DNA from: Squalus acanthias
Taxonomy: Eukaryota
Direction: 5' to 3'
DNA: 64,000 nt
Assembly: GCA_030390025.1 (NCBI GenBank)
Contig: CM059432.1
Location: forward strand, 59,894,001 to 59,958,000
The position numbers and the translations under genes are program-made. Below the pieces are notes generated by a model. That model made no database searches, was not told the DNA's origin, and saw only the letters and a list, made by a program, of their open reading frames with translations. Shown piece after piece: positions 10,471-63,104 of the stretch (position 1 is the stretch's first letter; every line of letters begins with the position of its first letter).

Positions 10471-10635
10471 TTAATATTGTTGCTGTATATATGTGGTTGC
10501 TGACTTTGGATAAATTTATTATTGGAATGTTGCAGATTTGGGGCTGTGTCTCATTTCAGCTTTGGGGTGTGGTACGGAATGAGAAATTGATGGAATGATG
10601 GGGATGTGCTGAGCAAGCGGGAAGAGGCCTCCAAT

Positions 10636-18235: not shown

Positions 18236-18481
18236 TGTGGCGGATCGCCACCTAAAACGGGCATAATCCACTCTTCCGTCTGTGGACAAATTTCCAGCCC
18301 CTTCCCTTTAAGGCAGAAGGGGGAGGGGCCTCAGGTTTTACCCAGAGAATTCTGGGAGTTTACCCAGAGAATTCTGGGAGCAGCTTTCTCAGACATTTTG
18401 TTTTGCCATGCAGTGAATAAAAGCTTCTTGTTTTCCACATATGGATTCAGCCTCCATTCGTGTTTCGCGGCAGCCTCAACA
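18236..18481 (+). repeat. 5' LTR
   Basis: TGTGGCGG...CCTCAACA, contains AATAAA; two mismatches seen against the 3' LTR. Confidence 0.95.
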
Positions 18482-18482
18482 T

Positions 18483-18496
18483 TGGTGACCCCGACG
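18483..18496 (+). promoter_or_regulatory. Primer-binding site complementary to the tRNA-Trp 3' end
   Basis: TGGTGACCCCGACG is the reverse complement of CGUCGGGGUCACCA and sits directly after the 5' LTR. Confidence 0.85.
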
Positions 18497-18521
18497 CTCA
18501 GAACGTATTCCGAGCACTGCA

Positions 18522-21500: not shown

Positions 21501-22333
21501 CCTCTACCACCACCGCCGACATCGCCAGAGCCTTCGTCAGCACCTGGGTCGCACGGTTCGGCGTCCCCTCCGACATGACGTCGGACAGAGGTCCGCAATT
21601 TACCTCTGAACTCTGGACCGCCGTCGCACGCAATCTCGGGGTGACCATCCACCGCACCACAGCGTACCACCCCCAAGCCAACGGGCTGTGTGAGCGGTTC
21701 CACAGATCCTTGAAGGCATCTCTTCGAGCCAGCCTCCAAGATGGCGCCTGGACTGACCGACTTCCGTGGGTCCTCCTTGGCCTGCGCACCGCGGTTAAAG
21801 AAGACCTCCACGCATCGGCAGCAGAGCTCGTGTACGGTCAGCCGCTGCGCGTACCCGCCGAGTTCCTGCCCACCGCCACGACACCCTGGTCAGCCGACCA
21901 GCAACGCCACAACTTCGCCTCACCGGCGCTGCAGTTCGCCCCGGTGCCCATTGCCCGACACAGCGAATCCACCTCACACGTCCCACTAAGCCTGCACCAG
22001 GCACGGTTTGTTTTCGTCCGGCACGACGCCCACCGCGGACCCCTTCAACCCCCGTACGACGGGCCCTACAAGGTGCTACAGGCTGGGGACAAATTTTTCA
22101 CCCTGCAAGTGGGCGACAGGACCGAAAAAGTGTCGGTGGACCGACTCAAGCCAGCACACTCGGAGCCTGGGGAGCAGGTCCCTGTAGCTCGTCCACCTCC
22201 ACGCGGCCGACCTGCCCTCAAGCCGGTTCACCCGGCTGCTCCACGCCCGGCCGTCCCACGTCCACCGGCATCCTACAAGAGCCGCTCCGGCCGGCCCATC
22301 AGACCGCCGCACCGTCTCGTCCACACCTCCTAA
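18522..22333 (+). pseudogene. Gypsy gag-pol polyprotein with one stop (20673-20675) and a 1-bp deletion (~20850)
   Basis: Gag CYYHARFGARAQRCTPPC, protease FLCDTGA, RT YLDD, RNase H TDASD...DRELLA...DHKP, integrase HNLSH..CLSC, DDE core and GPY motif. Confidence 0.92.
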
Positions 22334-22353
22334 GCGGATTCTGGGGGGAGCTG

Positions 22354-22599
22354 TGTGGCGGATCGCCACCTAAAACGGGCATAATCCACTCTTCCGTCTG
22401 TGGACAAATTTCCAGCCCCTTCCCTTTAAGGCAGAAGGGGGTGGGGCCGCAGGTTTTACCCAGAGAATTCTGGGAGTTTACCCAGAGAATTCTGGGAGCA
22501 GCTTTCTCAGACATTTTGTTTTGCCATGCAGTGAATAAAAGCTTCTTGTTTTCCACATATGGATTCAGCCTCCATTCGTGTTTCGCGGCAGCCTCAACA
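22354..22599 (+). repeat. 3' LTR
   Basis: Direct repeat of 18236-18481. Confidence 0.95.
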
Positions 22600-23942
22600 G
22601 GGTGTGATTAAGAAGCTTGCAGATGATACTAAAATCGGCTGTGTGGTTGATACTGAAGAAGGAAGCTGTAGACTGCGGAAGATATCAATAAATTGGTCAG
22701 GTGGGCAGAACAGTGGCAAATGGAATTCAATCCGGAGAAGTGTGAGGTAATGCATTTGGGGAGGGCTAACAAGGAAAGGGAATACACATTAAATGGTAGG
22801 ACACTGAGTCGTGTAGAGGAACAAAGAGACCTTGGAGTGCATGTCCACAGATCCCTGAAGGTAGCAGGCCAAGTAGATAAGGTGGTTAAGAAGGCATACG
22901 GAATGCTTGCCTTTATTAGCCGTGGCATAGAATACAAGAGCAGGGGGGTTATGCTTCAACTGTATAAAACACTAGTTAGGCCTCAGCTAGAGTACTGCGT
23001 GCAGTTCTGGTCACCACATTACAGGAAAGATGTGATTGCACTAGAGAGGGTACAGAGGAGATTTACAAGGATGTTGCCGGGAGTAGAGAATCTTAGCTAT
23101 GAGGAAAGACTGGATAGGCTGGGTCTGTTTTCCTTGGAACAGAGGAGGCTGAGGGGAGACCTTATTGAGGTGTATAAAATTATGAGGGGCATAGATAAAG
23201 TGGATAGAAAGGACCTATTTCCCTTAGCAGAGGGGTCAAAAACCAGGGGGCACAGATTTAAAGTAATTGGGGGAAGGTTTAGAGGGAATTTGAGGGGAAA
23301 TTTCTTCACCCAGAGGGTTGTGGGGGTCTGGAACTCACTGCCTGACAGGGTGGTAGAGGCAGGAAACCTAACCACATTTAAAAAAACTTGGATGTGCACT
23401 TGGGATGCTGTAACCTGCAGGACTACGGACCAAGAGCTGGGAAGTGGGATTAGGCTGGATAGCTCTTTGTTGGCCGGCGCGGACACGATGGGCCGAAATG
23501 GCCTCCTTCTGTGCTGTAACTTTCTATGATTCTATGATTCTCTGGTTGGAGAGTCTCGGACTTGGGGACATCGTCTAAAAATTAGAACCAGGCCTTTGAG
23601 GAGCGAAGTTAGGATACACTTCTACATGAAAAGGGTGGTAGAAGTTTGGAACCGTCTTCTGCAAACGGCAATTGATGCCAGATCAATTGTTAATTTTAAA
23701 TCTGGGATTGATAGATTTTTGTTAACCAAAGGTATCAAGGCATATGGGCCAACGGCAGGTATATGGAGTTAAGTTGCAGATCAGCCGTGATCTCATTGAA
23801 TGGTGGAACAGGCTCAAGGGGCTAAATGTCCTACTCCTGTTCCTATGTTCTGTTGTTTCTCTATTGAACTGCCCTTTTCACCCCATTCCCTCTGTACCTC
23901 CGCTGAATTGCTCCCCTCATGCAGCTACTGGAATCCCCCACT

Positions 23943-24382
23943 CCCCAGTGCCTCTGCTGGATCACCCTAACCCCAGTGCCTCTGCTGGATCACCCTAACC
24001 CCAGTGCCTCTGCTGGATCGCCCTAACCCCAGTGTCTCTGCTGGATCACCCTAACCCCAGTGTCTCTGCTGGATCACCCTAACCCCAGTGCCTCTGCTGG
24101 ATCGCCCTAACCCCAGTGTCTCTGCTGGATCACCCTAACCCCAGTGCCTCTGCTGGATCACCCTAACCCCAGTGCCTCTGCTGGATCGCCCTAACCCCAG
24201 TGTCTCTGCTGGATCACCCTAACCCCAGTGTCTCTGCTGGATCACCCTAACCCCAGTGCCTCTGCTGGATCACCCTAACCCCAGTGTCTCTGCTGGATCA
24301 CCCTAACCCCAGTGTCTCTGCTGGATCACCCTAACCCCAGTGTCTCTGCTGGATCACCCTAACCCCAGTGCCTCTGCTGGAT
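23943..24382. repeat. 28-bp minisatellite, 15 full units plus a partial unit
   Basis: Unit CCCCAGTG(C/T)CTCTGCTGGATC(A/G)CCCTAA in head-to-tail tandem. Confidence 0.95.
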
Positions 24383-24763: not shown

Positions 24764-25503
24764 GGCCCGGAATTTGCGGTCGGGATGATGGCAAACTGGC
24801 AGCGTTCGCCGTCATTCCGCCTTTGAAACTGACCACAACTTTGGGATTTGGCGCATGCAAAATCCTGAAGTTGAGCTCTGTCATTGACAGCTCCGACACA
24901 GGCTGCACTGTGCGCTCCCCCCACAGAGCCGGCAATCTGTGTAATCATCCAAATCAGGAAAAGTGAGGAAAACTTTGGCTCTTCCGCAGTAAGTACGCTG
25001 TTAAATTCCCCACTAAAAGATAGACCCAAAGGGATCAGGTGTAACTGGGGATTTAATAGTGTATTGACTGCTAAACAAAGGTTAAGGGCCCGAAAAACTA
25101 ATTTTAATTTTGTACAGTGTGATATCTGTCCATTTTAATAAAAATTACAGTTTTTAAGAAACTTTTAGTTTGTCCATCTTTATTTCAGGTTTGCCTTTAC
25201 CCTAAGTGAGATCCCCAATCTTTGTCTTGCTCTCTCTAACATTTTTAAAAAGTTAGAATTTTAAGAGCTTACTCACTTCCTTGTTCGCTGTTTGTGAGAA
25301 TTCTGTGTTTTGATTGGCTGGTTAGACAGCTTGCTGACATCACAGCAGTTCACACAAGGGGATCCCCACTATACTCCATTGATTTGAATTGAGTGTCGGA
25401 AAACCCAAAGTTCTTGACACAATTTGCGAGATCTTTGTGCAAAGCATACTTTGGGGCCAGCAGCAAACACCTTCGCTTCGCTGCTGACCGCAAATTCCGG
25501 GCC
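24764..25503. mobile_element. Harbinger-type MITE
   Basis: Perfect 18-bp TIR GGCCCGGAATTTGCGGTC / GACCGCAAATTCCGGGCC; related to 59-1008. Confidence 0.8.
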
Positions 25504-36200: not shown

Positions 36201-36918
36201 TACGTATAAATAGTTGATTATTGAAAATACACAAATGTTACTTATTCATGGGCCCAATCACAGGCCTGTGTAAAAAAGAAATATGGACATAGGACCATGG
36301 AATTGAACCACTTTGAGAAAGAATAAACAAAGTAAATGCCTCCAGGATTGGGAATGTATAGCAAGGGGCTTAAACATTTCCCCAGATATATTTTTTGATG
36401 GGGGAGAGGGGTTGAATCCTTCATGCTGGGCCCCAGTCCACCTCAATCAAAAATATTAAACTTATGCCACAGCCACCATAACTCAGCAAACTCACTGGAG
36501 AATGTGTGTTGGGGAGGTGTGTGTGGGGAGGGGGTGTTACAGGAATGGATTATTGTTGAATATATTTAACATATTCTCTGTCTCTTCTATTTCCCGCTGA
36601 AGATTCGATTGCCCTGTTATAAGAAGAAAGTTGCTTTGTGAGTTGATCTTTCCCTTGAAGTCAACTTATGGGCATGATTAGTGACGTTATCCGAGTCTAA
36701 CTGCATCGTTATTAAACTGTACCATTTTTTTGTTTTACAAATATTAACATTAAAACATTAGCTTGCTTTTATTCTAACGATTTCCTTTCCAGATAACCTG
36801 AGATAAAGTCAACAAAAATCCATCAGACACCCAAACAAATGCCCCCCCCCCCCCCCTTTTGGGTTTGATGTGCAGGCTCTTCGCCCCACATTGAGTAATA
36901 AAAGCATGCTGCTCTCAC

Positions 36919-37769
36919 CTGCTGGCCATGCTCTGCCGGCAGTGCTGCCTGAAGGGCATGAGGTGGTAGTTCATGGCATCCAGCAGGAGCTTCTGACAGG
37001 CGGGGTCGGTTCGCATGAAATCAACCGACTGCACCCTCTCCACCAGCTCGGTGGCGGGGATGAGGGCGAAGCGGAGCCGCTTCATCAGGTCCGGGGCGTA
37101 TTGCATGCGAGTCTCCCGATCGTGTTCGAGCCAGAGCACGGACATCTGAAAGAGAGCCAGCTCCGACTCCACAGGTGGCGGCATCGAGTCCATCATGGCG
37201 CACACCTCTTCGAAATTGAGTAGTAGGATGTCCTCCACGAAGTACTTGTTGGCCAGCTTCTTGGTCTCGTCCAGCCCGTGGATGGCGGCGATCTGGCAGA
37301 TCTGCTTGTAGTTCTGCATAGATATCTGGTCGTTGAGGAACTGGACGCAGAGTTTAGTGACGGGAGGGATGTGGAGGATCTTGCTGACCGAGAGCACGTC
37401 CTCCACCGTATCCAGAGACAGTGTCATGTTGGCCGTGTAGATGTACTCCAAGACCAGGCATACCCCGGTGGCCGAGCAGCCCTGCAGCACGATATTGTTG
37501 ATGGACCGGGAGATGTCCTCGGCCGGGGAAGAAGGGGTCCGGCTCCCCGGGTCGTCAGTGCTCTCTTTGCACTGGTTGTTGGAGAAAAGCGATCGGAAAT
37601 ACTGGGAGCAGGAAGCCAGCACTGCTTTGTGGCAATGGAACTGCTGGCTTTGGGCTGTCAGAGTCACATCACAGAAAAGCTGTTTCCTCCACAGCAGGTT
37701 GAGGCCATGGAGAAGGTTATCACTGTGTGTAGGGTCGAAGGTGGACGTCCTGTCACCAGATCTTGACAT
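36919..37769 (-). CDS. KLHL14: Kelch-like protein 14, first coding exon (BTB and BACK domains); partial gene
   Basis: MSRSGDRTSTFDPTHSDNLLHGLNLLWRKQLFCDV...LLDAMNYHLMPFRQHCRQSMASR matches the vertebrate KLHL14 N-terminus as recalled. Acceptor ccttttag at 37792, donor AG|GTGAG at 36918 (phase 2). Confidence 0.93.
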
Positions 37770-38503
37770 GGTATCTAACTTTGGACACCTCCTAAAAGGG
37801 CACACATTTCACACAGTCAGATTTTAGGCATTATTTCCCCGTGACAAACATTTCCATGTAAGTAAAGCAAGATTTCTCAGACCAACGCTCCATTAAAGAG
37901 AACAACATGTTTTATTATTGTTACAAAAGACGTCTGTTGTATGCGAAATCTCTCTATGGGTTAAATCCTTACGCTAATGTTACCTTTTATTTGCTCAGTC
38001 TACACATTTTAAGCAGCACACTGTTACTGCGAATGTAAGTCACCCCTGCATGTTTGTCCTAATAAACATTACAGAAAGATAGCAGGTATAAATATCAGTG
38101 CCGTTTGCATTCAAGGTTTATTTTTCTGTTCGAAGAGACCACAAATGAAATAGTTAAAGTTTCATGTTACCTAATGGTGTTTAAAAAAACGACCAGTTAA
38201 TACATAAAGACCGGTACAGTTGTTTGGTATAAGTGGGTGCAATAACAGACGTCAGGGGTCAGATTCTTAACAGAAATAAACTTCAAAAATCGGAAGCAGC
38301 GCCTTACTAAGTAAAGCTGCCGAGCTTCCATGGTGTTTGCTACATGCACGGATCTCCTTTTCAAATTTAGCAGTAGCCCCTTGTCTGATCCAGCTCCTGC
38401 CCATGGATTTTCACATTGCTGTTTATTCACCAAGGCACCTGTCACAGCCTCATCTCCCCAGTGTTTCCCACTCGTCACCAACGCAGACAGGCCACAAACT
38501 TAC

Positions 38504-43092: not shown

Positions 43093-43486
43093 CACAAATG
43101 CATACCAGATTTAAGAACCCACTATTTTATGGCTGTGGCTCTTTTTTTTCACTTTGTCTTGGGCTCATGCAAAAAAGCACTCTTCATAAACAAAACAAAT
43201 CTCCCCATAAACTGATATCTCTACCCTTATATAGAATTAAAAATTATCCCCTAATTGTAGAATTGACCAATGGAAATCACAGGGGATGCCCACATTTGCA
43301 TGACTCTTTCAAAAGGCAGAGTAGACGACATTGTCAGACCAATGCATACAAGCTAAAACCAACAGTCAGATTTGCTTCTAATACAAAAGCAAAATACTGC
43401 GGATGCTGGAAATCTGGAATAAAAACAGAAAATGCTGGAAATACTCAGCAGGTCAGGCAGCATCTGTGGAGAGAGAAACAGAGTTA

Positions 43487-44358
43487 ATGGCCGCGATTTT
43501 GCGGCTTGGGAGCGGGTCAGCTGGTTTTCGGGTTCCAGTCCCGCCCCCAACTGCATCCGGCCAACGGATGTGATTTTACATCGATTGGCCTTGTTAAGCC
43601 CTCCCTGTGGGCTTGCTGGACAATTTAGAAGAAGCTGGTCAGATGACGTCATTTGATGACGCATCATCTGCCGGTTTTCTTAAAGGGACCACGCACAATT
43701 TTTCTTTGACAGCTCATTTCTCAGTGTTTGACAGCATTGAGGTGCTGCAAACACTGACAATGACTGTTCACAGGTGAGTTGTTGCACCCAGGCTCTCCAG
43801 TGACTCCCTCCTTAGGCTAGAACAGATGGCAGCTGCAGGTGAGGTTACAGAAGCGATCTGTCACTGGTGAGAGAGGTTCTCCCAATGAGGTGGGACTAGA
43901 CAGCCAATTCAAAACCTGTTACCTACAGAAAAGAGTAAATACATTAAAAATGATTTTCCCAACATTTTCTTATCTCTGAAACTCATCAGTGCACCATTGG
44001 ATCCTTCACACCACTTCTGCAGCTGTCATCAATGCAGAAACATTACAGCAGACTCACAGCACGCCACACTTACCTTCCGTGGTGTCCGGACGTCGGGGAA
44101 CCTGAGGCAGAAGCGGCAAAATTGAAAAAGAGCCTGTTAACAAGTATCAAGTACCTGTTAACAGGCAGGTAAGTGGCTGTAATCCTCTTCTCGCCGCTAG
44201 GTGTCGGGTCCATGCGCAAATCGGGGACCTGACACTTGGGAAGATTGATTGGAGGCGGGTTGACAGCGGGTTTCCTGCCCACTGTCAATCTTTGTGATTT
44301 TGACAGCGGGTTCCTGCCTCCAATCCCACACTCTGAGGACTGGCAAAATTCCGGCCCT
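43487..44358. mobile_element. Harbinger-type MITE in the left Penelope arm
   Basis: TIR core GGCCGCGATTTTGC / GCAAAATTCCGGCC; TTA duplicated (43484-43486 / 44359-44361). Confidence 0.75.
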
Positions 44359-44393
44359 TTAAGGTTTCAGGTCAATGACCTTTCATCAGAATT
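44359..44393 (-). ncRNA. Minimal hammerhead ribozyme motif in the pLTR (disrupted)
   Basis: Minus strand CTGATGA-A-AGGTC-att-GACCT-GAAAC; the downstream strand is separated by the MITE. Confidence 0.65.
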
Positions 44394-44983
44394 GGAAAAA
44401 GTTAGAGATGTAACAGATTTTACGCAAGTGCAGAGTCAGGGAAAAGGGGGTGGGGAGAAAAGAACAATAGGGAAGGTCTGTGATAGGGTGGAAGGCAGGA
44501 GTGATTAAATGACAAAAGCTATGATTGTACAAAGCAAAAGGAGATGGTAATGGGACAAGTAAAGAAACAAAAGATGGGTCTAAAAGAGGTGTAAATGGAT
44601 ACAGCAGAATCATCAACAACTGCCATCTGAAAAAATTGGAGCAGAGGTTATGGCTTTAAATTGTTGAACTTGATGTTGAGTCTAGAAGGTTGTAAAGTGC
44701 CTAATAGAAAGATGAGGTGCTGTTCCTCGAGCTTACATTGAGCTTTGTTGGAATCGTGTAAGAGGTCCAAGACAGAGAGGTCAGAGTGGGAGTGGAGAGG
44801 AGAATTAAAGTAACAGGCGACTGGATGCTCGGGGTCACGCTTGCGGACTGAAATGGAAGTGTTCCGCAAAGCGGTCACCCAATCTGCATTTGGTCTCCCC
44901 AATGTAGAGGGGACCGCATTGTGAGCAGCGCATACAGTATACTAAATTGCAAAAAGTACAAGTAAATCGCTGTTTCACCTGGA

Positions 44984-47681
44984 AGGTGTTTGATAAAGTG
45001 CCACATAATAGGCTTGCCAGCAAAGTTAAAACCCATGGAATAAAAGGGACAGTAGTAGCATGGATATGAAATTGGCTAAGCGACAGGAAACAGAGAGTAG
45101 TGGTTGTTTATCGGACTGGAGGAAGGTATACAGTGGTGTTCCCCAGGAGTTGGTACTAGGACCACTGCTTTTCTTGATATATATTAATGACTTGGACTTG
45201 GGTGTACTGGGCACAATTTCAAAATTTGCAGATGACACAAAACTTGGAAGTATAGTGAACAGTGAGGGAGATAGTGATAGATTTCAGAAGGACATAGACA
45301 GGCTGGTGGAATGGGCGGATATGTGGCAGATGGAATTTAATACACAAAAGTGCGAAGTGATACAATTTGGTAGGAAGAATGAGGAGAGACAATATAAACT
45401 AAAGGGTATAATCCTAAAGGGGGTGCATGAACAGAGAGACTGGGGGGGCGGGGGTATATGTGCACACATTGTTGAAGGTAGCAGGGCAGGTTGAAAAAGG
45501 GGTTAAAAAAGCATATGGGTTCCTGGGCTTCATAAATAGAGGTATAGAGTACAAAAGCAAGGAATATATGATGAACCTTTATAAAACACTGGTTCGGCTG
45601 CAACTGGAGTATTGTGTCCAATTCTGGGCACCACACTTTAAGAAGGATATGAAGGCCTTAGAGAGGGTGCAGAAAAGATTTACAAGAATGGTTCCAGGGA
45701 TGAGGGACTTCAGTTATGTGGATAGACTAGAGAAGTTCTCCTTAGAGCAGAGAAGGTTGAGAGGAGATTTGATAGAGGTGTTCAAAATCATGATGGGTCT
45801 AGACAGAGTAGATAGAGAGAAACTGTTCCCATTGGTGGAAGGGTCCAGAACCAGAGGACAGAGATTTAAGGTGATTGTCAGAAGAAGGTTGAGAGGAGAT
45901 GCATTGCTGATCATCTTCCAACATTCAATGGAATCTGGAACTGTACCCATGGATTGGAGGGTAGCTAATGTTACCCCACTATTCAAAAAGGGTGGTAGAG
46001 AGAAAGCGGGGAAGCCTGACATCGGTAGTGGGGAAAATGTTGGAGTCCATTATAAAGGATGTAATAGCTGAGCACTTGAAAAACAGTGACAGGATCGGAC
46101 AAAGTCAACATGGATTTACAAAAGGTAAATCATGCTTGACTAATCGATTGGAATTTTTTGAGGACGTAACTGGGAAAATAGATAAGGGCGAACCAGTAGA
46201 TGTGGTGTATTTGGACTTTCAAAAGGCTTTCGATAAGGTCCCGCATAAGAAATTAGCGTGTAAAGTTAAGGCACATGGGATTGGGGGCAAGGTATTGACT
46301 TGGATAGAGAACTGGTTGGCGGACAGAAAGCAGAGAGTAGGAATTAATGGGTCTTTTTCCGAGTGGCAAGCAGTGACTAGTGGGGTACCGCAGGGATCGG
46401 TCCTTGGACCCCAGCTATTCACAATATACATTAATGATCTAGATAAGGGAACTAAATGTAATATCTCCAAGTTTGCAGATGACACAAAGCTGGGTGGGAG
46501 TGTGTGCTGCGAGGAGGATACCGAGAAACTCCAGGATGATTTGGACAGGTTGGGTAAGTGGGCAGAAGCATGGCAGATGCAATATAACGTGGATAAATGC
46601 GAGGTTATCCACTTTGGTGTCAAAAACAGAAAGGCAGACTATTATCTGAATGGCAATAGATTGGGAGAAGGGGAAGTGCAACGAGACCTGGGTGTCCTTG
46701 TGCACCAGTCGCTGAAGGTAAGCATGCAGGTGCAGCAGGCGGTGAAGAAGGCAAATGGTATGTTGGCCTTCATAGCGAAAGGGTTTGAATATAGGAACAG
46801 GGATGTCCTGCTGCAGTTGTACAGGGCCTTGGTGAGACCACACCTTGAGTACTGTGTGCAGTTTTGGTCGCCTTATCTGAGGAAGGATGTTCTTGCCATG
46901 GAAGGAGTTCAGCGAAGATTCACAAGGCTGAAACCTGGGATGGCAGGAATGACATATGAGGAGAGATTGGGTCGATTGGGCTTATACTCACTGGAGTATA
47001 GAAGAATGAGAGGGGATCTCATCGAAACAGATAAAATTCTGACAGGTCTGGACAAACTAGATGCAGGAAGAATGTTCCCGATGGTCGGAGAGTCCAGAAC
47101 CAGGGGTCATAATCTAAGGATAAGGGGTAAGCCATTTAGGACAGAAATGAGGAAGAATTTCTTCACCCAGAGAGTGGTGAACCTGTGGAATTCTCTACCA
47201 CAGAAGGTAGTTGAGGCCAAGTCATTAAATATATTCAAGAATGAGTTAGATATATTTCTTAAAGCTAAAGGTATCAAGGGATATGGGGAGAAGGCAGGGA
47301 CAGGGTACTGAGTTTGGATGATCAGCCATGATCTCATCGAATGGCGGAGCAGGCTCAAGGGCCCGAATGGCCTACTCCTGCTCCTATCTTCTATGTTTCT
47401 ATGTTTCTATGTAACCAAAGGCGAGATGAGGAAAAACTTTTTTACGCAGCGAGTGGTTATGATCTGGAATTCACTGCCTGAAAGGGTGGTGGAGGTAGAC
47501 TCATTCGTGGCTTTCAAAAGGGAATTGGATAACTACCTGAAGGAAAAACATTTGCACGGCTACAGGGAAAGGGCGGGGGGAGTGGGACTAGCTGAAGTGC
47601 TCTTGCAGAGAGCCGGCACGGGTTCGACAGGCCGAATGGCCTCCTTCTGTGCTGTAACCATTCTATGATTCTATGATTCTA
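44984..47681 (+). mobile_element. CR1 fragment inserted in the Penelope arm, itself hosting a younger CR1
   Basis: FDKVPH...SGVPQELVLGP...FADD; resumes accaaaggcgagatgagg at ~47414; (TTCTATGA)n tail. Penelope sequence resumes at ~47681. Confidence 0.88.
45897..47412 (+). mobile_element. Young CR1, near-identical to 8045-9570
   Basis: Colinear with copy 1 apart from scattered substitutions and a 14-bp deletion at ~46013; (TTCTATGT)n tail. Confidence 0.95.
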
Positions 47682-47879
47682 GGAGTGTTTGGAACCCTGG
47701 ACAGTGGGAAGGGAGGAGGTAAAAGGGCAGGTGTTGCATCTCCTGCGCTTGCAGGGGAAGGTGCCGTGGGAAGGGGAGTGGGTGTTGGGGCATTTTCTGT
47801 TTTTATTTCAGATTTCCAGCATTCGCAGTATTTTGCTTTTGTATTAGTGTTTAATTCACTGCCACTTTTCTTCTAGGAA

Positions 47880-50558
47880 TGCCCACCTTGAAGAAGTTTT
47901 GCTCTTCTCTCCAACGGGATTTCCGTTTGTCTCTTTTACCTTGTTCATCTTCATTGCTTTCTGTTTCCATTCTAGTGTTTGATCAGGTATCTACCAAACC
48001 TCACTTTCACAGCCACATCTCTTTCCTCAGCAACTGTCTCTGGCTCTAACTTATTCCACATGGATTCCAACAGAAATTCCACCCTTCATGTTTCGGATCC
48101 ACCCAGGATTACAGATATCTCCAAGATATTCAGCGTTCCTCGAACCACTGCTCTCGCCACATCCTGACATCCACCCTCAATGTCATGCATCGCCACATGG
48201 ACTCTCTCGACCTCTCTCTTCAGCAGCACTGACTTACTCTATCTCAAAGCTGTCCTGGTCCACTGTTCCATTTCATCCTTCGCCACATCCGACACTTTAA
48301 CAAAAGACTTCTTTTCTTCCTTTCAGGTGTCAAGGAGCACAAGCTTCAACAACTCTTGGACACCAACGCCCCTCCGGAACCTGCTTCCCCTTTACTTTCC
48401 TCTGACCCCATCCCTTCTTCCAATCTCACCCCCTGCCGTGTTTTCACTATCCCCTCTGACATTCCCCTCTCTGACCCCGAATGATCAGTCCTCAGCAAAG
48501 GCCTGAGCTTCATCCCCAAACTCCACCTCCTCAATGAATTTCGAGCTCGGCATGACGCTGAGCTCTTTTTCTGTCGCCTTCGTCTCTGTGTCCAATTCTT
48601 TGGTCAGGTGTCTTCCCCCCGGCAAAGCAGACCCTTTCTCCCATTTTCAGAATTCTCGTTCTACCTGGACCCTTCGTCTGGCCTCTTACCTTCTCTAGAT
48701 CTTTTAATTGCGAACTTCCGGCGTGACGTCGATCATCTCAATTTCTCTGCTCCCCTCACTCACTCCAACCTAGCTCCCTCTGACCTTGCAGCACTCCGTT
48801 CTCTCAGATCCAACCCTAACATTGTCATTAAACCTGCTGACAAGGGTGGCGCTGTTGTTTGGTGAACCAACCTCTACCTTGTGGAGTCTGAACGCCAACT
48901 CTCTGACACCTCCTCCTACCTCCCTCTGGACCATGACCCCACTACCGAGCATCAAGCCATAGTTTCCAGGACTGCTACTGACCTCATCTCCTCTGGAAAT
49001 CTTCCCTCTACACCGCCAACCTCATAGTCCCCAACCCCGCACAACCCGCTTCTACCTCCTTCCCAAGATACACAAACAGGACTGCCCTGGTAGACCCATC
49101 ATTTCAGCCTCTTCCCACATACATCCGCGACTGTTCCGACACCTCCGCCACTTTAACAGTTTCCAGTTTCCTGATCCCAATTGTCTGCTTTTCACTATGG
49201 ACGTCCAATCCCTCTACACCTCCATTCCCCACCAGGACGGTCTGAGGGCGCTCCGCATCTTCCTTGAACAGAGGCCCAACCAGTCCCCATCCACCACCAC
49301 CCTCCTCTGCCTGCTGAACTTGTTCTCACATTGAACAACTTCTCCTTTGACTCCACTCACTTCCTCCAAATAAAAGATGTTGCTATGGGAACCCGCATGG
49401 GTCCTAGCTATGCCTGCCTTTTCGTGGGATATGTGCAACATTCTTTGTTCCAGTCCTATCAGATTCCCTCCCTCACTTCTTTTTCTGGTACATTGATGAC
49501 TGTATCAGTGCCGTTCCCTGCTCTCATCCTGAACTAGAAAATTTCATTCACTTTGCTCCCAATTTCTACCCTTTCCTCGCCTTCACATGGTCCATCTCTG
49601 ACTCGTCCCTTCCATTCCCTTCCTCAACTTCTCTGTCTCCATTTCTGGGGATAGGCTATCAACAAACATCCACTATAAGCCCACTGACTCCCACAGCTAC
49701 CTTGACTACACTTTCTCCCACCCCGCTTTCTGTAAGGACTCTATTCCATTCTCCCAGTTTCTCCATCACCTTCTCATCTGTTCTGACGATGCCACCTTCC
49801 ATATTAGTGCTTCTGATATGTCTTCCTTTTTCCTCAGCCGAGGATTCCCCTCTACCGGGGTCGACATGGCCCTCGACTGTGTCCATTTCAGACCCGCACT
49901 TCTGCTCTCATCCCTTCCCCTCCCTCCCAGAACCACGATAGGGTTCCCCTTGACCTCATCTTTCACTCTACCAGCCTCCACATTCAACAAATCATCCTCA
50001 GCCATTTCCGCCACCTCCAGCGTGATTCCACCAGCAAACACATCTTCCCCTCCCCTTTCAGCATTCCGAACGGACCGCTCCCTCCGCGACACCCTGATCC
50101 ACTCCTCAATCACCCCCAACATCCCCTCCCCTTCCCACGGCACATTCCCCTGCAAGTGCAGGAGATGCAACACCTTCCCTTTTACTTTCTCCCTTCCCAC
50201 CGTCCAGGGCCCCAAACACTCCTTCCAGTTGAAACAGCGATTTACTTGTACTTCTTGCAATTTAGTATATTGTATTCACTGCTCACGATGCAGTCTCCTC
50301 TACATTGGGGAGAACAAATGCAGTTTGGGTGACTGCTTTGCGGAACACCTCCGTTCAGTCCGTAAGGGTGACTCCGAACTTCCGGTTGCCTGTCATTTTA
50401 ATTCTCCGCTCCACTCCCACTCTGACCTCTCTGTTCTCGGCCTCTTACACTGTTCCAACGAAGCTCAATGTAAGCTTGAGGAACAGAACCACATCTTTCT
50501 ATAAGGTGCTTTACAGCCTTCTGGACTCAACATCAAGTTCAACAATTTCAGACCATAA
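47880..50558 (+). pseudogene. Penelope RT plus GIY-YIG endonuclease ORF, many frameshifts
   Basis: IVIKPADKGGAVV, FYLLPKIHK..PGRPIIS, MDVQSLYTSIP, VAMGTRMGPSYA, YIDD, Cys linker PCKCRRCNT, NLVYCIHC..C.LLYIGE. Start approximate. Confidence 0.85.
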
Positions 50559-50798
50559 CCTCTGTCCTTATTTTTTCAGATGATTCTGCTGTATCCATTT
50601 ACACCTCTTCTAGACCCATCTTTTGTTTCTTTACTTGTCCCATTACCATCTCCTTTTGCTTTGTACAATCATAGCTTTTGTCATTTAATCACTCCTGCCT
50701 TCCACCCTATCACAGACCTTCCCTTTTGTTCTTTCCTCCCTTCCCCTTTTCCCTGCCCCTGCACTTGCTTAAAATCTGTTACATCTCTAACTTTTTCC

Positions 50799-50831
50799 AA
50801 TTCTGAAGTAAGGTCATCGACCTGAAACGTT
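50799..50831 (+). ncRNA. Minimal hammerhead ribozyme motif in the 3' pLTR (mutated, disrupted)
   Basis: CTGAAGT-A-AGGTC-atc-GACCT-GAAACGTT, with AACT following only after the MITE. Confidence 0.55.
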
Positions 50832-51247
50832 GGGCTGTATTTTCATTGACCCATGGAGGCGGGTTTGGAGGCGTGTGGGGGGTTAAAATTGCAAAAAGTG
50901 GCGGGCGGGCACAAGTCCGCCTCCATCCCGCCTCCACGCGATTTTCATGAAATCATGTCTGCTGGTCCCGACTGCGTCCCGCCTTTAAGAGACGGGATAG
51001 GTTGTTAAGGCCCTTAACAAGCACTAAATTGGCTCTATAATGCCATTTTGAAAGGCCTTTGTGATTCTAACCCTTGTTCTATGTGAAGCACGCCTGTTCT
51101 GAACCACGATTGTGAAACCTGGCGGGAGCACATTTGGATAGGTGACTATCAGTGGCTGGGCTGACTATCAGTGAGTGAGTGGCTGGCAGGCATCTGGGAG
51201 TGGTGGAGGAGACATATCTGGGAATGCTGGTTCTGGTTCTGGTTCTG

Positions 51248-51286
<39 letters not shown>

Positions 51287-51544
51287 TATATTTTGCATCC
51301 AGGTCCTCTCACAGCAAAGGCCAGACAGTCTCTGAAAACCTTCAATGCAGCAGCAATGATGACATCATCAGAGGCAACTTTCAGACTGAAAACACTAATT
51401 GGTTCATGGGTTCCCACATGCTGGAACTCAATTGCCCAATTAGGTGAAAATCGCATCAATCTCCCACATCCAATTGCAGTCGGGTGGATAACACGAAAAG
51501 TGGATAACACGACCCCAACCCGCCCCAGTATCAAAATCCAGCCC
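50832..51544. mobile_element. Harbinger-type MITE in the right Penelope arm, with (CTGGTT)n(CT)n microsatellite
   Basis: TIRs GGGCTGTATTTT / AAAATCCAGCCC; flanks GTT / GCT restore gaaacgttaactctg. Confidence 0.78.
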
Positions 51545-52322
51545 GCTAACTCTGTTTCTCTCTCCACAGATGCTGCCTGACCTGCTGAGTATTTCAAGAA
51601 TTTTCTGTTTTTAAGTCAGATTTGCTTCCAAGTCGAATAATACATAGAAGTAGTAAACCACAGCAAGGTGATTGAGAGGACAATACTTAAAAATAATAAT
51701 AATAGAATCAGTCACAAGGGGTTAAAAATTCCCTTTTTAGAATTTATTTCTTACCAGTGTGATAAGTGGCGGGTCTTTTGGATTATATAGCGTTTCATAA
51801 ACCTTCATGATGTGAAGTTGTACATGGATGACTTAAATTTACAGTTCATTCACAGAGTTTGGAACGCTCGCCAGAACTAAAGAGTCTGAAGTTTATGTTG
51901 TTTGACTAGCCATGATTAAAGACGGATTGGTAGGGGAAACTGCATATCATGCAAATGACCAGTTCTCATATTATCCAGGTCTACCAAATGCCCTGTTCAT
52001 ATATAATTCAATTCATACCTAAAAGAAAGTCTCTGTATCCCGGTTTATTTTCAGAACCACCAACTGGTCAATTTGAAATTGAGTAAGGAAAGATGTCTGC
52101 CATTTTAATTCTAGCTGTTTTAAACTGCATGAAATAAAATACAGAAATCTTTTGATTTTGTCACAGCCACTGCCAAGCAAAATGAGACTGGCCCCACCTA
52201 CACCAACTTCATTCAAAGACAAATGTGAGAATGAAAAAGATTTTTTTTGTAAATTTTTACATACCATGATGCAGTCTCTTTTACAGAAAAGTATCTCTAC
52301 TGTCAGTACATCACCAAAAAAA

Positions 52323-53435: not shown

Positions 53436-55154
53436 CTAAATGTATAAAAAATATCTGCCTGAAATATTTTAGGCTGATGTCCAATATCATAAATGTAATT
53501 AGAGATGACCTTCTTTCCATGACAATTGATGAAACCCCTGAGATGCAGCCCTTCATATTCAGAGCCAAAAGTAACGGAGGGCCCATTATATCCAAAACTC
53601 ATCCCAGCTGTGCTACATGGCTGTTAGAATTCAATATTGAAACAGTAGACATGTTGCTTACAGTGTTGTTTCACTTTATAGTATTTTTGCTTAGTAAAGA
53701 AGAAAGAAACATAAAGCTCTATGTGGCCATATTGACAGTAAAAGGAAGAGAAAAATAGTTAATGGGCACCATGATTTCTAAGTGAGAATATAAATCATGT
53801 TGTGGAAATAATGAGAAGACTGGAATCTGAGTGTACCTGATTAAGCATCCATGAGCTATTTAATATAGTTGGGGTAGATGCCAGAATTGCATTTCAGAAT
53901 AAACTGAAGGGAGAGTTTTCTCAGTTTGTGTCTGGTACCTGTGCACTGTTGGTCTGCTTGTCATTCTATAAGCAGTACTACTATTAGCAGCTTTAGGTTC
54001 CTTTGCCCATCATGCATAACAAATTGCAAGCGGTGATGTTACAAATTCTGCCATCTGCATTGTCTTTTGAAGTGGATGAAGCGTCACTCTGGTTTTCAGC
54101 ACAAGTCACTGACCCATTTACAAAGGGTGAGATCTCTTCAGACTTTGAAGTCTATGGCTTAGAAATTATTGTTGGTAGCATTAGTGGGCGAATGCTTAAC
54201 ATAGTCATATGACATTCATTTTGTGTGCTATTTTAGCAACAATGTTATACCATATAAAATAAAATGAATGGAGTTCATGCCTGCATTAAAATAGCAGAGG
54301 GTGGAATGTCATATAAGCACATTAAATGTTTATCAGCTAATATCACGAACAGTAATTTCTTTATTTTTCATCCTGTTAATATCTTTGATGTGGTGTGTAC
54401 ATAGTTTGCTGTGTATCTTGATGAACCCATCCCAACAAACAAGGATCTTTAATGTTCATTAGTTCTGGCAGGGAAAGTATCCACAGTGGCCTGTTTTTGT
54501 CATCTTGGCCATGCATGGATTAAGTTCTGATTTGAATGGTCAGTCTCTGAGATGAAATTCTTTACCAGTCACAGAGACAGCAAGAAAGTCAAAGGAAGCT
54601 CAAACTTTGCACTGTATTTTGTTACAAGAAGCTCACGTTATGAACTATTAGATGTAAATAGTTCAAGGGGGAGAAATTCGGTTGGTTAGCACCTCCCATT
54701 AGCGCCTGGCGGGCGTGCTAACGGAGCGCTAATGAAGTAGCACCGGGGTGAGAAGAATCTAGCGCTGTACACCAAATCCAGTCGCCCCTTAGCGCCGCCG
54801 TTAACAGTTAGCGCCTGGGGCTTTAGCGCCAGGCAGATCATAATGTCAGTGAGCGTGCAACACTTGCTAAGCGCCCGATCTGCCAAATTGATTATCGACC
54901 CCTGCCTTAGCGCCTCGCCCTGACAACGACAGGAAGAAGAGGCGTGAAGCAGGCGGATGGCGGCTCCAGGAGCAATATTTAAAGGGATCAGTCGCAGCTG
55001 TCAGGTGAGTGTTATTTCATTGCTTCCTTGTCAGTTTGCGATTGTGCAAGAGTTTAATTCAGTCATTGAAAGGTTCTTTAAGTATCAGGAGTGTTGTGGC
55101 TACTAAAAATTTGTTACATTTATTCTGACAGAATTTCTACACTTGGTTACATTA

Positions 55155-56331
55155 ATGGGGGCTGTACTGGCAGTCGACCTCGCCCTCCAGGATCTACTGC
55201 GGAGGGAGCGGAGGCAGCGAGAAAGATTACAAGATGTGGCCAGAGGAAGGAGGAGGGCCATCAGGGCTCTCAACAGGAGGCCTTACCCTCCGAGGGTATC
55301 CGAGAGCACTTCTCCTACCTCCAAATAAGCGAGGAGCAGTGCATTAGAAGGCTCTGCTTCACCAAGGATGTGGTCACCGAACTCTGCCACCTCCTGCAAC
55401 CAGACCTTAAGCCTCAGATAAGGACAACCACAGCTCTCTCAGTGGCAGTCAAGATCAGCGTCGCCCTCAGTTTCTTCGCCAGTAGTTCCTTCCAGTCTGC
55501 AACAGGAGATATAGTGAATATCTCGCAGTTCGCCGTCCATCGTTGCATCCGGGAGAACACAGAGGCTCTCTACAGTAGGAGAAGGGACTACATTTCCTTC
55601 CCCATCACCAGAGAGAAGCAGGATGAATGTGCATGTGGCTATGCCAGGATAGCGGAATTCCCCATGGTGCAGGGTGCCATTGACTGCACCCACGTGGCTT
55701 TGCGGGCACCGCATATCAATCCTGAGATCTTCTGTAACCGCAAAGGCTACCATTCACTTAATGTGCAGGTGGTGTGCGACCACACACAGTGAATCCTCAA
55801 TGTGAATGCCCACTATCCTGGCAGCAGCCACGATGCCTTCATCCTGCGCCAGACGTCTTCCAGCCACAATGTCAAGCTCGCGGCTGGCTGGGCGGAGACA
55901 AGGGCTATCCGCTCTCCACCTGGCTCATGACTCCCCTCCGCAAACCCAACACTCCTGCCCAGCACTCATATAATGAGAGCCATGCTGCCACCAGGGACAT
56001 CATCGAGCAGATCATCGGGGTGCTCAAGCAACGGTTCCGCTGCCTTGACCGCTCGGGAGGAGCCCACCAGTACTCGCCGGAGCAGGTGTCCCATCTCGTG
56101 GTGGTCTGCTGCATGCTTCACAACTTGGCCATCATGAGGGCACAGCCCTTGCCACCAGGAATTGTGGGACCACCTCAGGAGGAGGAAGAGGGAGAGGAGG
56201 AGGAGGACGAGGACGAGGAGGAAGATGAGGAGGAGGAGGAGGAGGAACCGAACCGAGGGAGGAGGCAGCCACTCAATCAGCCTTCCGGAAGAGCTGCCCG
56301 TGACCGCCTCACCAGACTGCGGTTCCAATAA
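55155..56331 (+). pseudogene. Harbinger DDE transposase (HARBI1-like), disrupted
   Basis: MGAVLA..., [59 protein letters not shown]; frameshifts at ~55300 and ~55855, stop at 55790. Confidence 0.9.
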
Positions 56332-56496
56332 ATTAAACCCCAGATTGCCGTTGCTCACCACATCCCCAACATTCCATCCCTGTTGCAGGCCATATCACAG
56401 CGCAAAGCTGAAATGAGACACACCACAAAATCATCCAAAGCCAATTAATAAATTAATCACTAATCAGTGAACACATATTTACAACAACAATATTAG

Positions 56497-58940
56497 CTAT
56501 TCACCCTTGTGCAATCCCTTAGTGCCCCTCGTTACTGTGCCTTTGCCTACTCTAGTGCTCCTACGAAGTGTTGGCCCAGTGGCTGCAGCACGGCTGGTGG
56601 AAGGCTGCTGAGTGTCCGTGTGGGAGACTTCAGATGGCCTTGCAGGACGCCCTCGACCAGCTCTGGGCCTGGAAGGCCCGGCTGTAGACTGTACCACCTC
56701 AGCATGGGCAGCAGCAGTCTGGGCTGGCTGGATGACAGGCAGCGACAAGGGCAATGGCAGAGTGCCAGTGGTGGGAGCAGGAATGCTGTCATCCTTTTTA
56801 AAATTTGTTTATGGGATGTGGGCATCGCTGGCAAGGCCAGCATTTATTGCCCATCCCTAATTGCCCTTGAGAAGGTGGTGGTGAGCCACTTTCTTGAACC
56901 GCTGCTGTCCGTGTGGAGAAGGTACTCCCACAATGCTGTTAGGGATGGAGTTCCAGGATTTTGACCCAGCGACGATGAAGGATCGGCGATATACTTCTAA
57001 GTCAGGATGATGTGTGACTTGGAGGGGAACTTGGAGCTGGTGGTGTTCCCATGCGCCTGCTGCCCTTGTCCTTCTAGTTGGAAGAGGTCGCGGGTTTGGG
57101 AGGTGCTGCCGAAGAAGCCTTGGCGAGTTGCAGCAGTGCATCTTGTAGATGGTACACAGTGCAGCCACAGTACGCCGGTGGTGGAGGGAGTGAATGTTTA
57201 AGGTGGTGGATGGGGTGCCAATCAAACGGGCTGCTTTGTCCTGGATGATGTCGAGCTTCTTGAGTGTTGTTGGAGCTGCACTCATCCAGGCAAGTGGAGA
57301 GTATTCCATCACACTCCTTACTTGTGCCTTGTAGATGGTAGAAAGGCTCCTGAGAGAGGACAGCAGCTTCCTGCTCCACTGACCCACTGCCACTCCCCCG
57401 GTGCAGCACCTCAGCATCACTACCAATTTGCTGGAGCACAGATTGCTGACCTGCAGCGACACTGTGAAAGCCCCGGTGGACAGTGGTCGACTCAGCCACG
57501 ATGGCAGCAGTTAGAGCTTGTGTGGCATCAAGCTGAGACTGCATGAGTGCAGTCTGAGAATCGATGACTCCAAGCATAGACTGCATTCCAACCCTAAGAC
57601 GTTGCGTGGCTTCCGCCTGTGCTGCAATGGAAGATGCGACATCACCCATCACACACGGCATCAGGTCTGGGTCGCCACGGTCTATCTGGGAGTCCACCAT
57701 CCTTTGCAGACTGGAAATGATGGGCTCCATAGTGTGTGCAGAGCTCAGTGCAATGTTGGCGGTGGACTCCTCCACACTCCCTACCATTGCCGAGAGGCTC
57801 TCGGGCACCCTCGTCATTACACCTATCATCTCCATGTGCATGCCCATCACCCGTCTTCTAAACGCCTCTCCATCGAGGTCCTCATCTGAGTCCTGTGCAG
57901 CAGAACTCGCGTGTGAACTCGCCCTCTGGGAAGCTGGCTCCCGAGCTACCCTTTCCCCCTGGCCTTACTGCAGCCCACTCATCCCCGGTGCCTCATCCTG
58001 TGCAGATCCCACTACTATATTAGCCTCTAAAAAACGTGTATTGCCAGTATCTGAGCTGGTGCCTGCGGGTGAGACACGCAGTGACGCGGTGTCTTCTTCG
58101 TCCTCCTTTTCTCCCACCTCGCTCTCAACGGTGCCCTCAGGGACAGGCTGCTCAGCTGCTTGCTCATTATCTGAAAGAGTCGGGTTAAGGGGAGGGGAGG
58201 GGGGCAGGAAGGGAGAAATGCATGCATACAGCATGATTAGCTGGAAAGTGGGAAAGGCTTGTGGGGTGAGGGGGAAGTGGGATGTGAGAAGAAGGAGTAG
58301 GGATGAACAAACCTTATCCCCAAGGGTGTCAACATTGCCGGTGGCCACGACGCCCACCACCTGGCGCCCAATGATTTGCAGCACTCTTTCCTCCAGCTCA
58401 GAAAGTGGTTGAGTGTCGGTTTGTCCTCCGCCTGTGCGCTCCTGCTCCCTCCTGTTGTGAGCCACCTTGGCCTGCAAGAGACAGGAAAGTGTGTGAGTGA
58501 GTGTGGAGCAATGTGTTTGGGAGATGTACCTGCCATAGTTGAATAGCTGTCATTGTGTGCAAGGTGTGAGATGTGGGTGTGAGTGTTGGTTGGTAGAGAT
58601 TGTTGGTGGGTGAGTGCTGGGGGTGTGGTGCTTTGGGCAGTGTGTGCAGACTGTGGTTCAGATGGTGGTATGTAGCATTTGTTGAAGCATTGACTCACCC
58701 TGACCACCTGAGTGAGGTTGTTAAATTTCTTCCTGCACTGTGTGTGGGTCCTGGGGACCACAGTGCTGCCCCAGATGTGCTGCGCTACCTCCCTCCACAT
58801 GGTGCGGAAGACTTGCGGCGAGGGCCTCCTGCCACTTGCCAGGTAGAACACCGCCTCCGTCTCTCCACAGCGAACACCAACACCGCAAATGCTTGGTCGC
58901 AGAATCTGCGGGCTCTCTGCCATGGACGTTGATCTGCCAT
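56497..58940 (-). pseudogene. Harbinger Myb/SANT-like partner gene (3 exons), disrupted
   Basis: MADQRPWQRARRF...WREVAQ...RTHTQCRKKFNNL | AKVAHNRREQERTGGG...| acidic, helical and P/S/T-rich parts ending GLHKGE*. Introns ~58698-58472 and ~58312-58171. Confidence 0.8.
56796..57347 (-). mobile_element. Jockey-group LINE 3' fragment inserted in the Myb gene
   Basis: Matches 52430-52965; TCCT on both flanks; the empty site is seen in Harbinger copy 1 near 10170. Confidence 0.88.
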
Positions 58941-59733
58941 AATGACACCTTCTTCAGTGGTCTGGTTTTTTCTCCTTGGCCTACTGCTGCTTGCTGAGAC
59001 AGTTGCAGAACCAGCAATGCTGAGAATGAGGTTCTGCAGCATGATTGAACCTCCCCTTTAAGAACTGGAAAGAGGCTGTGGCAATGATGACTAGTGATTA
59101 GACTGCACCTGAAATTACTTAGCGCTTTGAGTCTAACGCCACTGAGCCAGGTCACTAGCGCTTGATTTAGTGCTCCAATCCATTCTTTGAGCGATGAATT
59201 TTGCATGCAGCGAGATTCATTAGCACCTGGCGCTAAATCTCAAACTTTTCCCGAAGTTAGCGCCCATTCCTGGACGATAATGAATTTTGTCCCCCTACAG
59301 TTTTATTATCTTACACTTATAAAGCAAGTTTGTTAATAGTATGTTTAAAATTGAAATGTTTTAAAATCCAATTTTACACTGATTTTGTCTTTTTTAATGA
59401 AAAAATGAAAATGCAGAATTTGGTGAAATCATCAAATTTGTAAAAATAAACACCAAAACAAAAAAAGTGCACTGAAAAAACAAATTATAATGTGCATAGA
59501 CCTGATTGATGTGAACCACTTTCATTTTAATTCTTTATATTGTGAGCACTGGAAGAAAACACTCCTGACTCAGTAAAAATAATCATGTCCCTTAATCTTG
59601 ATAACCTTCACAAGCTGTATCAGATTCTTAAATATATGTACAATACAGTATGTAGTAAATTTATACATGTAATTGACAGCATAAAAATACAGTAATAATA
59701 AGCATGTCAAGATCCCTCATATCGAGAATCTCT

Positions 59734-60472
59734 GGGGGAGAAATTGGGGCGCTAACTTCGCCGGGGCGTTACTTTCAGCGCCATGAAAAAGTTAGCACCC
59801 CTGCGCCGTAAATTCAGTGGTAGTGCCCCAAGCAGGAGGTGAGGCGCTACTGGAAGCGCTTCCCCTCCTTCCTGGGGCGCTTCCAGTGAATATCGCAGTG
59901 CTACGTGCAACAGTACCATGCGCGTCGGCACATAGCACCGCGATATTGCAGGACTCCCTCCCCTGATTAAAGGGGAGGGGCCTAGCGCTGTGCGCACCGG
60001 GGCCCTGCTGGACCACCGGGGTGCTGGGTGCCAGGAAAGCAGCCCGGCACTCAAGAGGAGTGCCGGGCAGACCGATCGCGGCCAGCACCCTGAATAAAAG
60101 AGGGGGAAGGGGGCAGGTGCTGGCAGTCGGCCTTAAAAAAAACAGCCGCCCGACACCTGCACTTTAACTTGTGCCGCCGCGGCTGCAAAAGCGCCACCCT
60201 GACCCTGTCGGACATATCATCCGGCGATAGGTCAGGGGGCCCTACCGAAGTTTGCGGCCGGGGCACAAGCAGGGCTCTGCGCACAGTGATGACGTCATCG
60301 CCGGCAGCGCAGCGCCGTGGGGCGCTACCGACTACTGCTGACCTGCTAACCTCCCGCTGAATTTCGCGGGCGGCGTTAGCGGCGCCACGCCTGGGCGCTA
60401 GGGGCTTTGCGCCCCGTTAGCGGCCACTGGGGGGCGCTAATGGGAGGCGCAAAGCAACCCAATTTTTCCCCC
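59734..60472. mobile_element. Non-autonomous MITE related to the two autonomous Harbingers
   Basis: TCT|GGGGGAGAAATTGGG ... CCCAATTTTTCCCCC|TCT (perfect 3-bp TSD); the right end aligns with 12180-12302. Confidence 0.88.
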
Positions 60473-62389: not shown

Positions 62390-63104
62390 GGCCTGTATTT
62401 TCCAATGCCTATGGGTGTGTACGAGCTGTGTACACACCTGTAGGGACCTCGCAAGTGCCGGTTTCAGGCATGCGAAGCGCATGCGCTGAAAACCGCCATT
62501 TCCAATCTGTCAAGAATTCTCTTGACAGATCGCACGCCTGCCCTGGAGAAGGGCCTCTGCGGGGGGAGAGTTCGCTTTCTGCAGAACCTCCGCCTGCTGA
62601 AATCCCTTAAAAATCTTACGCCTGGTAAAAGCAGGCGTAAGGCCTGCTTTTACCAGCATAAGAGTTTAAAAAAGTTTTTAAAAATGTTTTCACTCGTTTA
62701 TAATTTAAAAATACTTTTAAAAAAGGTAAGTTTATTTTTAGCCCCGTAAAATACTATTTTGTTTAAAATATTTATTTTAATGTAATTTTAACTAATTTTA
62801 AAAAAGTGATTTAAAAAAAAAAAATTTATTTAATGTTTTGATGTCTTTTTGGAATGATCTCCATTCATACTTTTGACGGGTCTAAGCTGAGAGACCTGTC
62901 AAAAGTATGAAGGGAGATTCCCTTCTCCCATTGGTTCCCCATGGCCCACGTGATCCCAGGGATACCTGGGCCCTGCGCATTTCGTCGTGGAGAGGTCCAG
63001 GATCAGAAATGGCTGGACCTCTGGAGCCCTCAGGTAAGGGCGTAGGTTTTTTCCAGATCGGAGGCCTCCGCACGCAGGAAGCCTCCGATCGGAAAATATG
63101 GGCC
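62390..63104. mobile_element. Harbinger-type MITE (family of 12968-13733)
   Basis: TIRs GGCCTGTATTTTCC / GGAAAATATGGGCC; AT-rich centre; shared internal motifs. Confidence 0.75.

Follow-up and report, generated by a model that had tools for sequence, protein, structure and literature searches.

Why should both arms of a single retrotransposon be interrupted at the place where each is predicted to encode a ribozyme cleavage site, and by two different MITEs? The question is raised by a Penelope-like element in a 64,000-nucleotide stretch of the Squalus acanthias genome (positions 59,894,001 to 59,958,000 of contig CM059432.1, assembly GCA_030390025.1; hereafter the window). The probable explanation, in our view, is that a MITE lies at the predicted cleavage site of each arm through a Harbinger-type preference for the palindromic DNA target A-N-N-Y[3 nt]R-N-N-T, and not through any aiming at the ribozyme. 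In the accessible parts of the papers cited here, all of the components are of known kind, namely inverted-arm Penelope elements, minimal hammerheads and Harbingers with extended palindromic targets (PMC2836001, PMC4482050). A literature search that was thin on subscription journals, and that reached papers partly in excerpt, turned up no paper that describes Harbinger insertions in the hammerhead of a Penelope element.

One decayed Penelope-like element with inverted arms

We found that positions 43379-51613 hold one decayed Penelope-like retrotransposon whose inverted arms are 92% identical (719 of 782 ungapped columns in an alignment with the inserts left out; K2P 0.086). Both arms belong to one insertion, because a 15-bp direct repeat, the target-site duplication, bounds the whole element (left copy at 43364-43378 and right copy at 51614-51628, both plus strand). 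Two separate Penelope insertions were ruled out by the same observation, as a single 15-bp duplication encloses both arms. The inverted left arm (43379-47790, minus strand) is split by inserts into three parts, all on the minus strand: an outer part (43379-43486), which comprises the sequence 3′ of the hammerhead triplet and a 31-bp extension that is absent from the right arm; an inner part with the 5′ half of the hammerhead (44359-44989); and an innermost part (47681-47790) that is an inverted copy of 50114-50223. A 58-bp remnant of the 5′ direct repeat lies at the inversion point (47790-47847, plus strand). The right arm (50114-51613, plus strand) runs up to the insertion of the second MITE at 50114-50831, and its remainder (51545-51613, plus strand) holds the second copy of a 3-bp duplication (GCT) and the 3′ strand of helix I.

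The coding sequence, the inverted arms and the single duplication bear out the name Penelope, which a preliminary description of this DNA had given to the element. A frameshifted Penelope-like ORF for reverse transcriptase and GIY-YIG endonuclease was located by tblastn at 48362-50540 (plus strand); the database protein P0002, which has the Pfam domains RVT_1 and GIY-YIG, aligns to 48440-50537 in five segments spread over three frames (36-63% identity, E 5e-113). The five Penelope ORF fragments of the window, when scanned directly, gave no Pfam match. Two further database hits bear names from a bamboo shark, which points to a cartilaginous fish as the likely host. With an ORF that, as read through P0002, combines reverse transcriptase with a C-terminal GIY-YIG domain, and with pseudo-LTRs within one target duplication, the element has the make-up of an endonuclease-positive Penelope-like element. 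Similar to the Penelope insertions of Arkhipova et al. 2013 (PMC3846280), it consists of an ORF and an adjoining inverted arm with a 31-bp extension of one arm inside a single duplication; an inverted arm plus a short tail within one target duplication is a known form of Penelope in the accessible part of that paper. By contrast with the insertions described there, the target duplication is 15 bp rather than 8-10 bp, the inverted arm is about 800 bp long and extends into the endonuclease domain, and the 5′ direct repeat is down to 58 bp.

The left arm is further split by nested LINE fragments (44990-47680, plus strand; RVT_1 E 1.9e-29), in which self-BLAST revealed a younger copy at about 45894-47409 nested inside an older one. 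From the type of sequence, we take these fragments to be of the CR1 type. A copy at 8042-9571, itself nested in a transposase-bearing element at 6368-12302, matches the younger LINE with 96.8% identity over 1530 bp.

Hammerhead motifs in both arms

In both arms, a 5-bp stem II lies between CTGA-N-G and GAAAC, and the AACGTTAAC palindrome is interrupted; the preliminary description was right in placing a minimal hammerhead motif there in each arm. The core and stem II of the left arm lie at 44364-44389 (minus strand), and the 5′ half of the right-arm hammerhead lies at 50799-50831 (plus strand), with the triplet GTT at 50829-50831. In the standard numbering after PMC4209133, we read the motif as a putative minimal type I hammerhead with the triplet GUU and a 4-bp helix I. 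As positions 15.2-16.2 of this predicted hammerhead are palindromic, a dimer would be needed.

Similar to the minimal hammerheads of Penelope pLTRs, as they appear in the accessible text of Cervera and De la Pena 2014 (PMC4209133), the motif as predicted would have a type I core, an extra base after position 9, a short helix I, no helix III loop and a palindromic 15.2-16.2, and it is sited in terminal repeats. Unlike those hammerheads, it has A-U at pair 10.1-11.1 in both arms, where G-C is highly conserved, though not invariant, in minimal hammerheads, and both copies are interrupted by MITEs and show defects in the core or the helices. The left arm retains a full core and has C rather than G at position 16.2, with the palindrome lost; the right arm has T rather than A at core position 9. 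Energy folding formed stem II in both arms and, in the right-arm dimer, pairing through the palindrome, whereas helix I formed in neither the monomer nor the dimer folds of either arm. A search of the window with Rfam gave no matches at gathering scores, and one of 50700-50900 gave a single chance match (E 8.2). Hammerhead pattern scans returned two loci in viral contigs and, in metagenome contigs, none and then two; all four were unrelated sequence around a chance match.

The helix I mismatch is common to both arms, whereas about 97% of the family depth has the pairing base at position 44392 (in the contigs of two runs, C accounts for 890196 of 913519 depth units and for 601114 of 617566). 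The family majority fits a helix I of 4-5 bp and a palindromic 15.2-16.2; in the copy in the window, helix I is mismatched in both arms and the palindrome is lost in the left. As both arms carry a change that sets them apart from about 97% of the family, the motif had likely been weakened already when the element integrated, which suggests that the change came with the template of both arms.

These observations bear on the proposal, made in the preliminary description, that insertions were favoured for disabling the ribozyme or for breaking a long inverted repeat. Under such selection, the inserts that were kept would be those that destroy ribozymes or break the inverted repeat near a BTB-BACK gene; both hammerhead motifs are indeed interrupted, and a BTB-BACK coding frame lies downstream of the element, at a distance of about 5.6-13.8 kb. 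Three features weaken this reading, however: the MITEs are close to the outer ends of the arms (69 and about 108 bp away) and leave about 630 bp of inverted repeat unbroken, the two motifs lie on different strands, and both arms have the helix I defect. The ORF is also frameshifted, the exact base of insertion is irrelevant to breaking a repeat, and metazoan minimal hammerheads show little cleavage in vitro and do not cleave as monomers, according to the accessible part of PMC4209133. The claim finds no support here, and we regard selection after insertion as very unlikely.

Two independent MITEs at the predicted cleavage site

MITE 1, which is Harbinger-type by its TIR pattern, can be read as 872 bp with TTA/TTA flanks (43487-44358) or as 868 bp (43489-44356). 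The 872-bp reading needs a TIR two bases longer than in the relatives of MITE 1 in the window, whereas the 868-bp reading puts the start of the TIR at GGCC, which is where it lies in two partial relatives (3587-3852 and 14009-15783). With the GGCC start, the outer junction falls exactly on the GTT site of MITE 2, in the same register as in the two relatives, and the inner junction has four additional bases. MITE 2 (50832-51544, 713 bp, GGGCTG-type TIRs) lies directly 3′ of the predicted cleavage triplet; its TIRs match at 13 of 16 positions, its flanks are GTT and GCT, and the triplet GTT is apparently duplicated. Both MITEs have short TIRs (12-13 of 16 positions matching), and all three of their overlapping frames of at least 100 amino acids were without a Pfam match. 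The putative 3-bp duplication is GTT/GCT at MITE 2 and either TTA/TTA or an imperfect junction at MITE 1, and the two insertion sites are offset by 0, 1 or 2 nt depending on the reading. The distance of 2 nt given previously applies under the 872-bp TTA/TTA reading, and the other readings give 0 or 1 nt.

MITE 1 and MITE 2 are independent. Their best local alignment scored 24, which was no better than shuffled sequences (22.8 ± 2.5; 61 of 200 as high), confirming the earlier view that two different MITEs are present. One ancestral MITE copied into both arms, with one of the copies later replaced or rewritten, could account for sites that may be the same three bases, but this alignment largely refutes it: the similarity is no better than chance, and TIRs and lengths differ in spite of the 92% identity of the surrounding arms. 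We give this explanation next to no credence.

BLAST of either MITE against the two transposase-bearing elements of the window detected no similarity, and the TIRs differ as well, so the link to Harbinger rests on the TIRs, the 3-nt flanks and the target motif. Similar to the PHIS groups PIF/Harbinger, ISL2EU, Pangu, NuwaI and NuwaII, the MITEs have short TIRs that begin with G or A, putative 3-nt duplications and A/T-rich targets (Han et al. 2015, PMC4482050). The duplications listed for PHIS groups in the accessible part of that paper are TWA, AT, ANT, CWG and TNA. GTT/GCT of MITE 2 differs from all of these, and we therefore call the MITEs Harbinger-type without naming a group; TTA of MITE 1, in the 872-bp reading only, would fit the TWA of PIF/Harbinger sensu stricto.

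Eight other two-ended Harbinger-type inserts lie in the window, some of which may be wrongly paired (3587-3852, 6368-12302, 12968-13733, 14009-15783, 24764-25503, 54667-59295, 59734-60472 and 62390-63104). Two of them contain DDE_Tnp_4 frames (E 5e-27 and 2e-18), which indicates that Harbinger machinery existed in this genome; their transposase-related frames are at 10714-11817 (minus strand), 55082-56331 (plus strand) and 58237-58953 (minus strand), and the two elements have related TIRs and a nested LINE fragment each. One insert gave a weak Myb/SANT match below the Pfam cut-off. A generic scan of the window for TIR pairs returned at least 942 pairs, mostly chance. Only two of the eight inserts have the same 3-nt flank on both sides. 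In two inserts a left-hand ATT is paired with a right-hand AAT, and one of these two has perfect 14-nt TIRs; we can only speculate that the TIR is one base longer and the duplication is AT, or that donor overhangs are sometimes kept at insertion. The accessible part of PMC4561436 shows overhangs at excision only. The window holds many Harbinger-type inserts, whereas the accessible text of PMC9179366 reports that none was found in the elephant shark and suggests that other cartilaginous fish be checked.

An abundant repeat family with mostly empty sites

Reads and contigs were examined for the left arm only (43250-45000) in four of 24 sequencing runs. Two raw-read runs yielded 34 and 0 reads and were uninformative. 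In the contigs of two runs, 635 and 912 had loose ends at 43487, among the loose ends listed, and the majority there reads into an intact motif (agreement 0.60 and 0.63); many contig joints in two runs skip 875-886 bases at MITE 1. Most family contigs are empty at this site, and the empty form of the family retains the downstream half of the core and the triplet. MITE 1 itself is deeply covered by contigs of two runs. Summed depth over the repeat exceeds that of the unique flank by orders of magnitude, although a depth sum is not a copy number. In both runs, summed contig depth is 3-9 million over 43368-43485, 3′ of the triplet, and mostly 0.4-1.7 million 5′ of the triplet, as if many copies were short stumps of that end, again with the proviso that depth gives no copy number.

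A palindromic target that coincides with the hammerhead

We derived a target motif from the eight other two-ended inserts in the window (16 half-sites), with one-ended candidates left out. The inserts were paired by hand with the motif already known, and two pairs were fixed only afterwards. Counting the two half-sites of one insert as independent, A occurred at position −4 in 12 of 16 half-sites (p 1e-4) and a pyrimidine at −1 in 14 of 16 (p 0.002), and 11 of 16 had both. The flank common to these eight inserts is A-N-N-Y[3 nt]R-N-N-T, an extended palindromic preference, and the hammerhead, which reads GAAAC[GTT]AACTC, agrees with it at every position. The same pattern is found in the 15-bp palindrome AAACACCWGGTCTTT, the target of zebrafish Harbinger3_DR (Sinzelle et al. 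2008, as cited in PMC3016246), and extended targets are general in the Harbinger superfamily (PMC2836001), as far as the accessible parts of both papers go. Similar to Harbinger3_DR, the inserts studied here have a putative 3-nt duplication within an extended palindrome with A at −4, a pyrimidine at −1, a purine at +1 and T at +4. Unlike Harbinger3_DR, the central triplet is GTT (or TAA) rather than CWG, the target coincides with the predicted ribozyme site of another element, and the MITEs are without a transposase, with none linked to them.

A matrix built from the 16 half-sites ranked the GTT site second of 767 sites in the right arm and second of 829 in the left. Leaving out one insert at a time kept it at rank 2 in seven of eight cases and moved it to rank 7 once, and frames shifted by 1-3 nt gave ranks of 36-749. 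With a matrix from only the four or six pairs fixed earlier, the site ranked 12 or 11 of 767, respectively. The motif alone does not single out the GTT site, because the loose motif occurs 18 times and the six-position motif eight times in the 784-nt right arm, and because the top-ranked site of the matrix is empty in both arms. If MITE 1 is read as a TAA duplication, its site comes only 119th of 767 and 43rd of 829, and the argument from a shared target would then cover MITE 2 alone. We rejected GTTAAC or TAA as the recognized motif, as TTA and TAA positions rank only 43-173. The suggestion that the predicted cleavage triplet is a recurrent target of DNA transposons is thus upheld in that the site is a preferred one (rank 2 of 767), with the correction that the relevant motif is the A-N-N-Y[3 nt]R-N-N-T flank and not GTTAAC or TAA. 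We set aside a matrix-based estimate (about 5%) of the chance that two inserts share a site, since matrices in shifted frames yielded much the same figure (2-8%).

One alternative is chance combined with search bias: as MITEs are many and Penelope arms very numerous, a scan would occasionally come upon two hits only a few bases from each other, and a weak preference for A/T-rich palindromes would suffice. With eight others in 46.9 kb, inserts are dense in the host DNA, and the repeat itself is very abundant; the TTA reading, moreover, puts the two MITEs at different sites, of which that of MITE 1 scores poorly. However, simple arithmetic from eight inserts in 46.9 kb indicates that, if insertion were uniform, hits in both arms less than or equal to 2 nt apart would be expected in about 1 in 10,000 two-armed elements, and only four of 1000 matrices from random sites ranked the GTT site second or better. 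On balance, we consider chance an unlikely explanation.

A second alternative is that Harbinger families evolved to target the Penelope hammerhead as an abundant and harmless landing site, with loss of the ribozyme amounting to antagonism between elements. As part of this proposal, the left half-site could not drift, being the catalytic GAAA box. The 713-bp MITE 2 apparently duplicates exactly the predicted cleavage triplet, key positions of the flank map onto conserved ribozyme bases, and the GTT site was struck twice while the top-ranked site of the arm stayed empty. Against this, the same motif has been published for zebrafish Harbinger3 (PMC3016246, in its accessible part) and need not, therefore, have evolved for the Penelope repeat. 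Both in-window relatives of MITE 1 also lie outside Penelope DNA, one of them inside a CR1-type copy, and the family contigs are mostly empty at the site. Evolved targeting is, in our estimation, distinctly improbable.

A model of ordinary target choice

On the basis of these results, we favour a model in which the palindromic preference of Harbinger-type transposases accounts for both inserts. On integration, the element would have contained two motif copies derived from a single template, in which the helix I mismatch was already present, and it would then have decayed; the two MITEs would have landed afterwards, independently, one in each arm. The transposases may read a palindromic DNA target of which the left half-site is the GAAAC box of the ribozyme and the right half-site is the helix I strand, so that every copy of this very abundant repeat would offer the same target. 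An insert would place 700-870 nt between the helix I strand and the core. The MITE insertions would thereby probably abolish cleavage of the predicted ribozyme, likely as a side effect in an already dead copy.

According to this model, a target preference already known for transposases can turn a functional RNA motif in another mobile element into an insertion hot spot. With near-identical targets in their thousands, a single genome offers a natural test, in which the Harbinger target could be measured base by base and which would also show whether bases bound by ribozyme function hold the target in place. If evolved targeting were true instead, the catalytic GAAA box, being fixed in active Penelope copies, would be an inescapable target, and inserts at the ribozyme cleavage bond would remove copies from the active pool, an antagonism between transposon classes at the level of DNA. 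The relevance to the host, as far as shown, is small: this is a dead copy, and no effect on the host was found.

Neighbouring features of the window

The BTB-BACK coding frame of a kelch-like gene lies at 36915-37808 (minus strand), with the Penelope element upstream of it; this frame presumably resembles KLHL14. An LTR retrotransposon at about 18250-22600, with long open frames for reverse transcriptase, an RNase H-like domain and integrase, is inserted in a LINE. Its end repeats are near-identical, so it looks young, and we take it to be of the Ty3/gypsy type. A head-to-tail array of a 28-bp unit occupies about 23950-24380.
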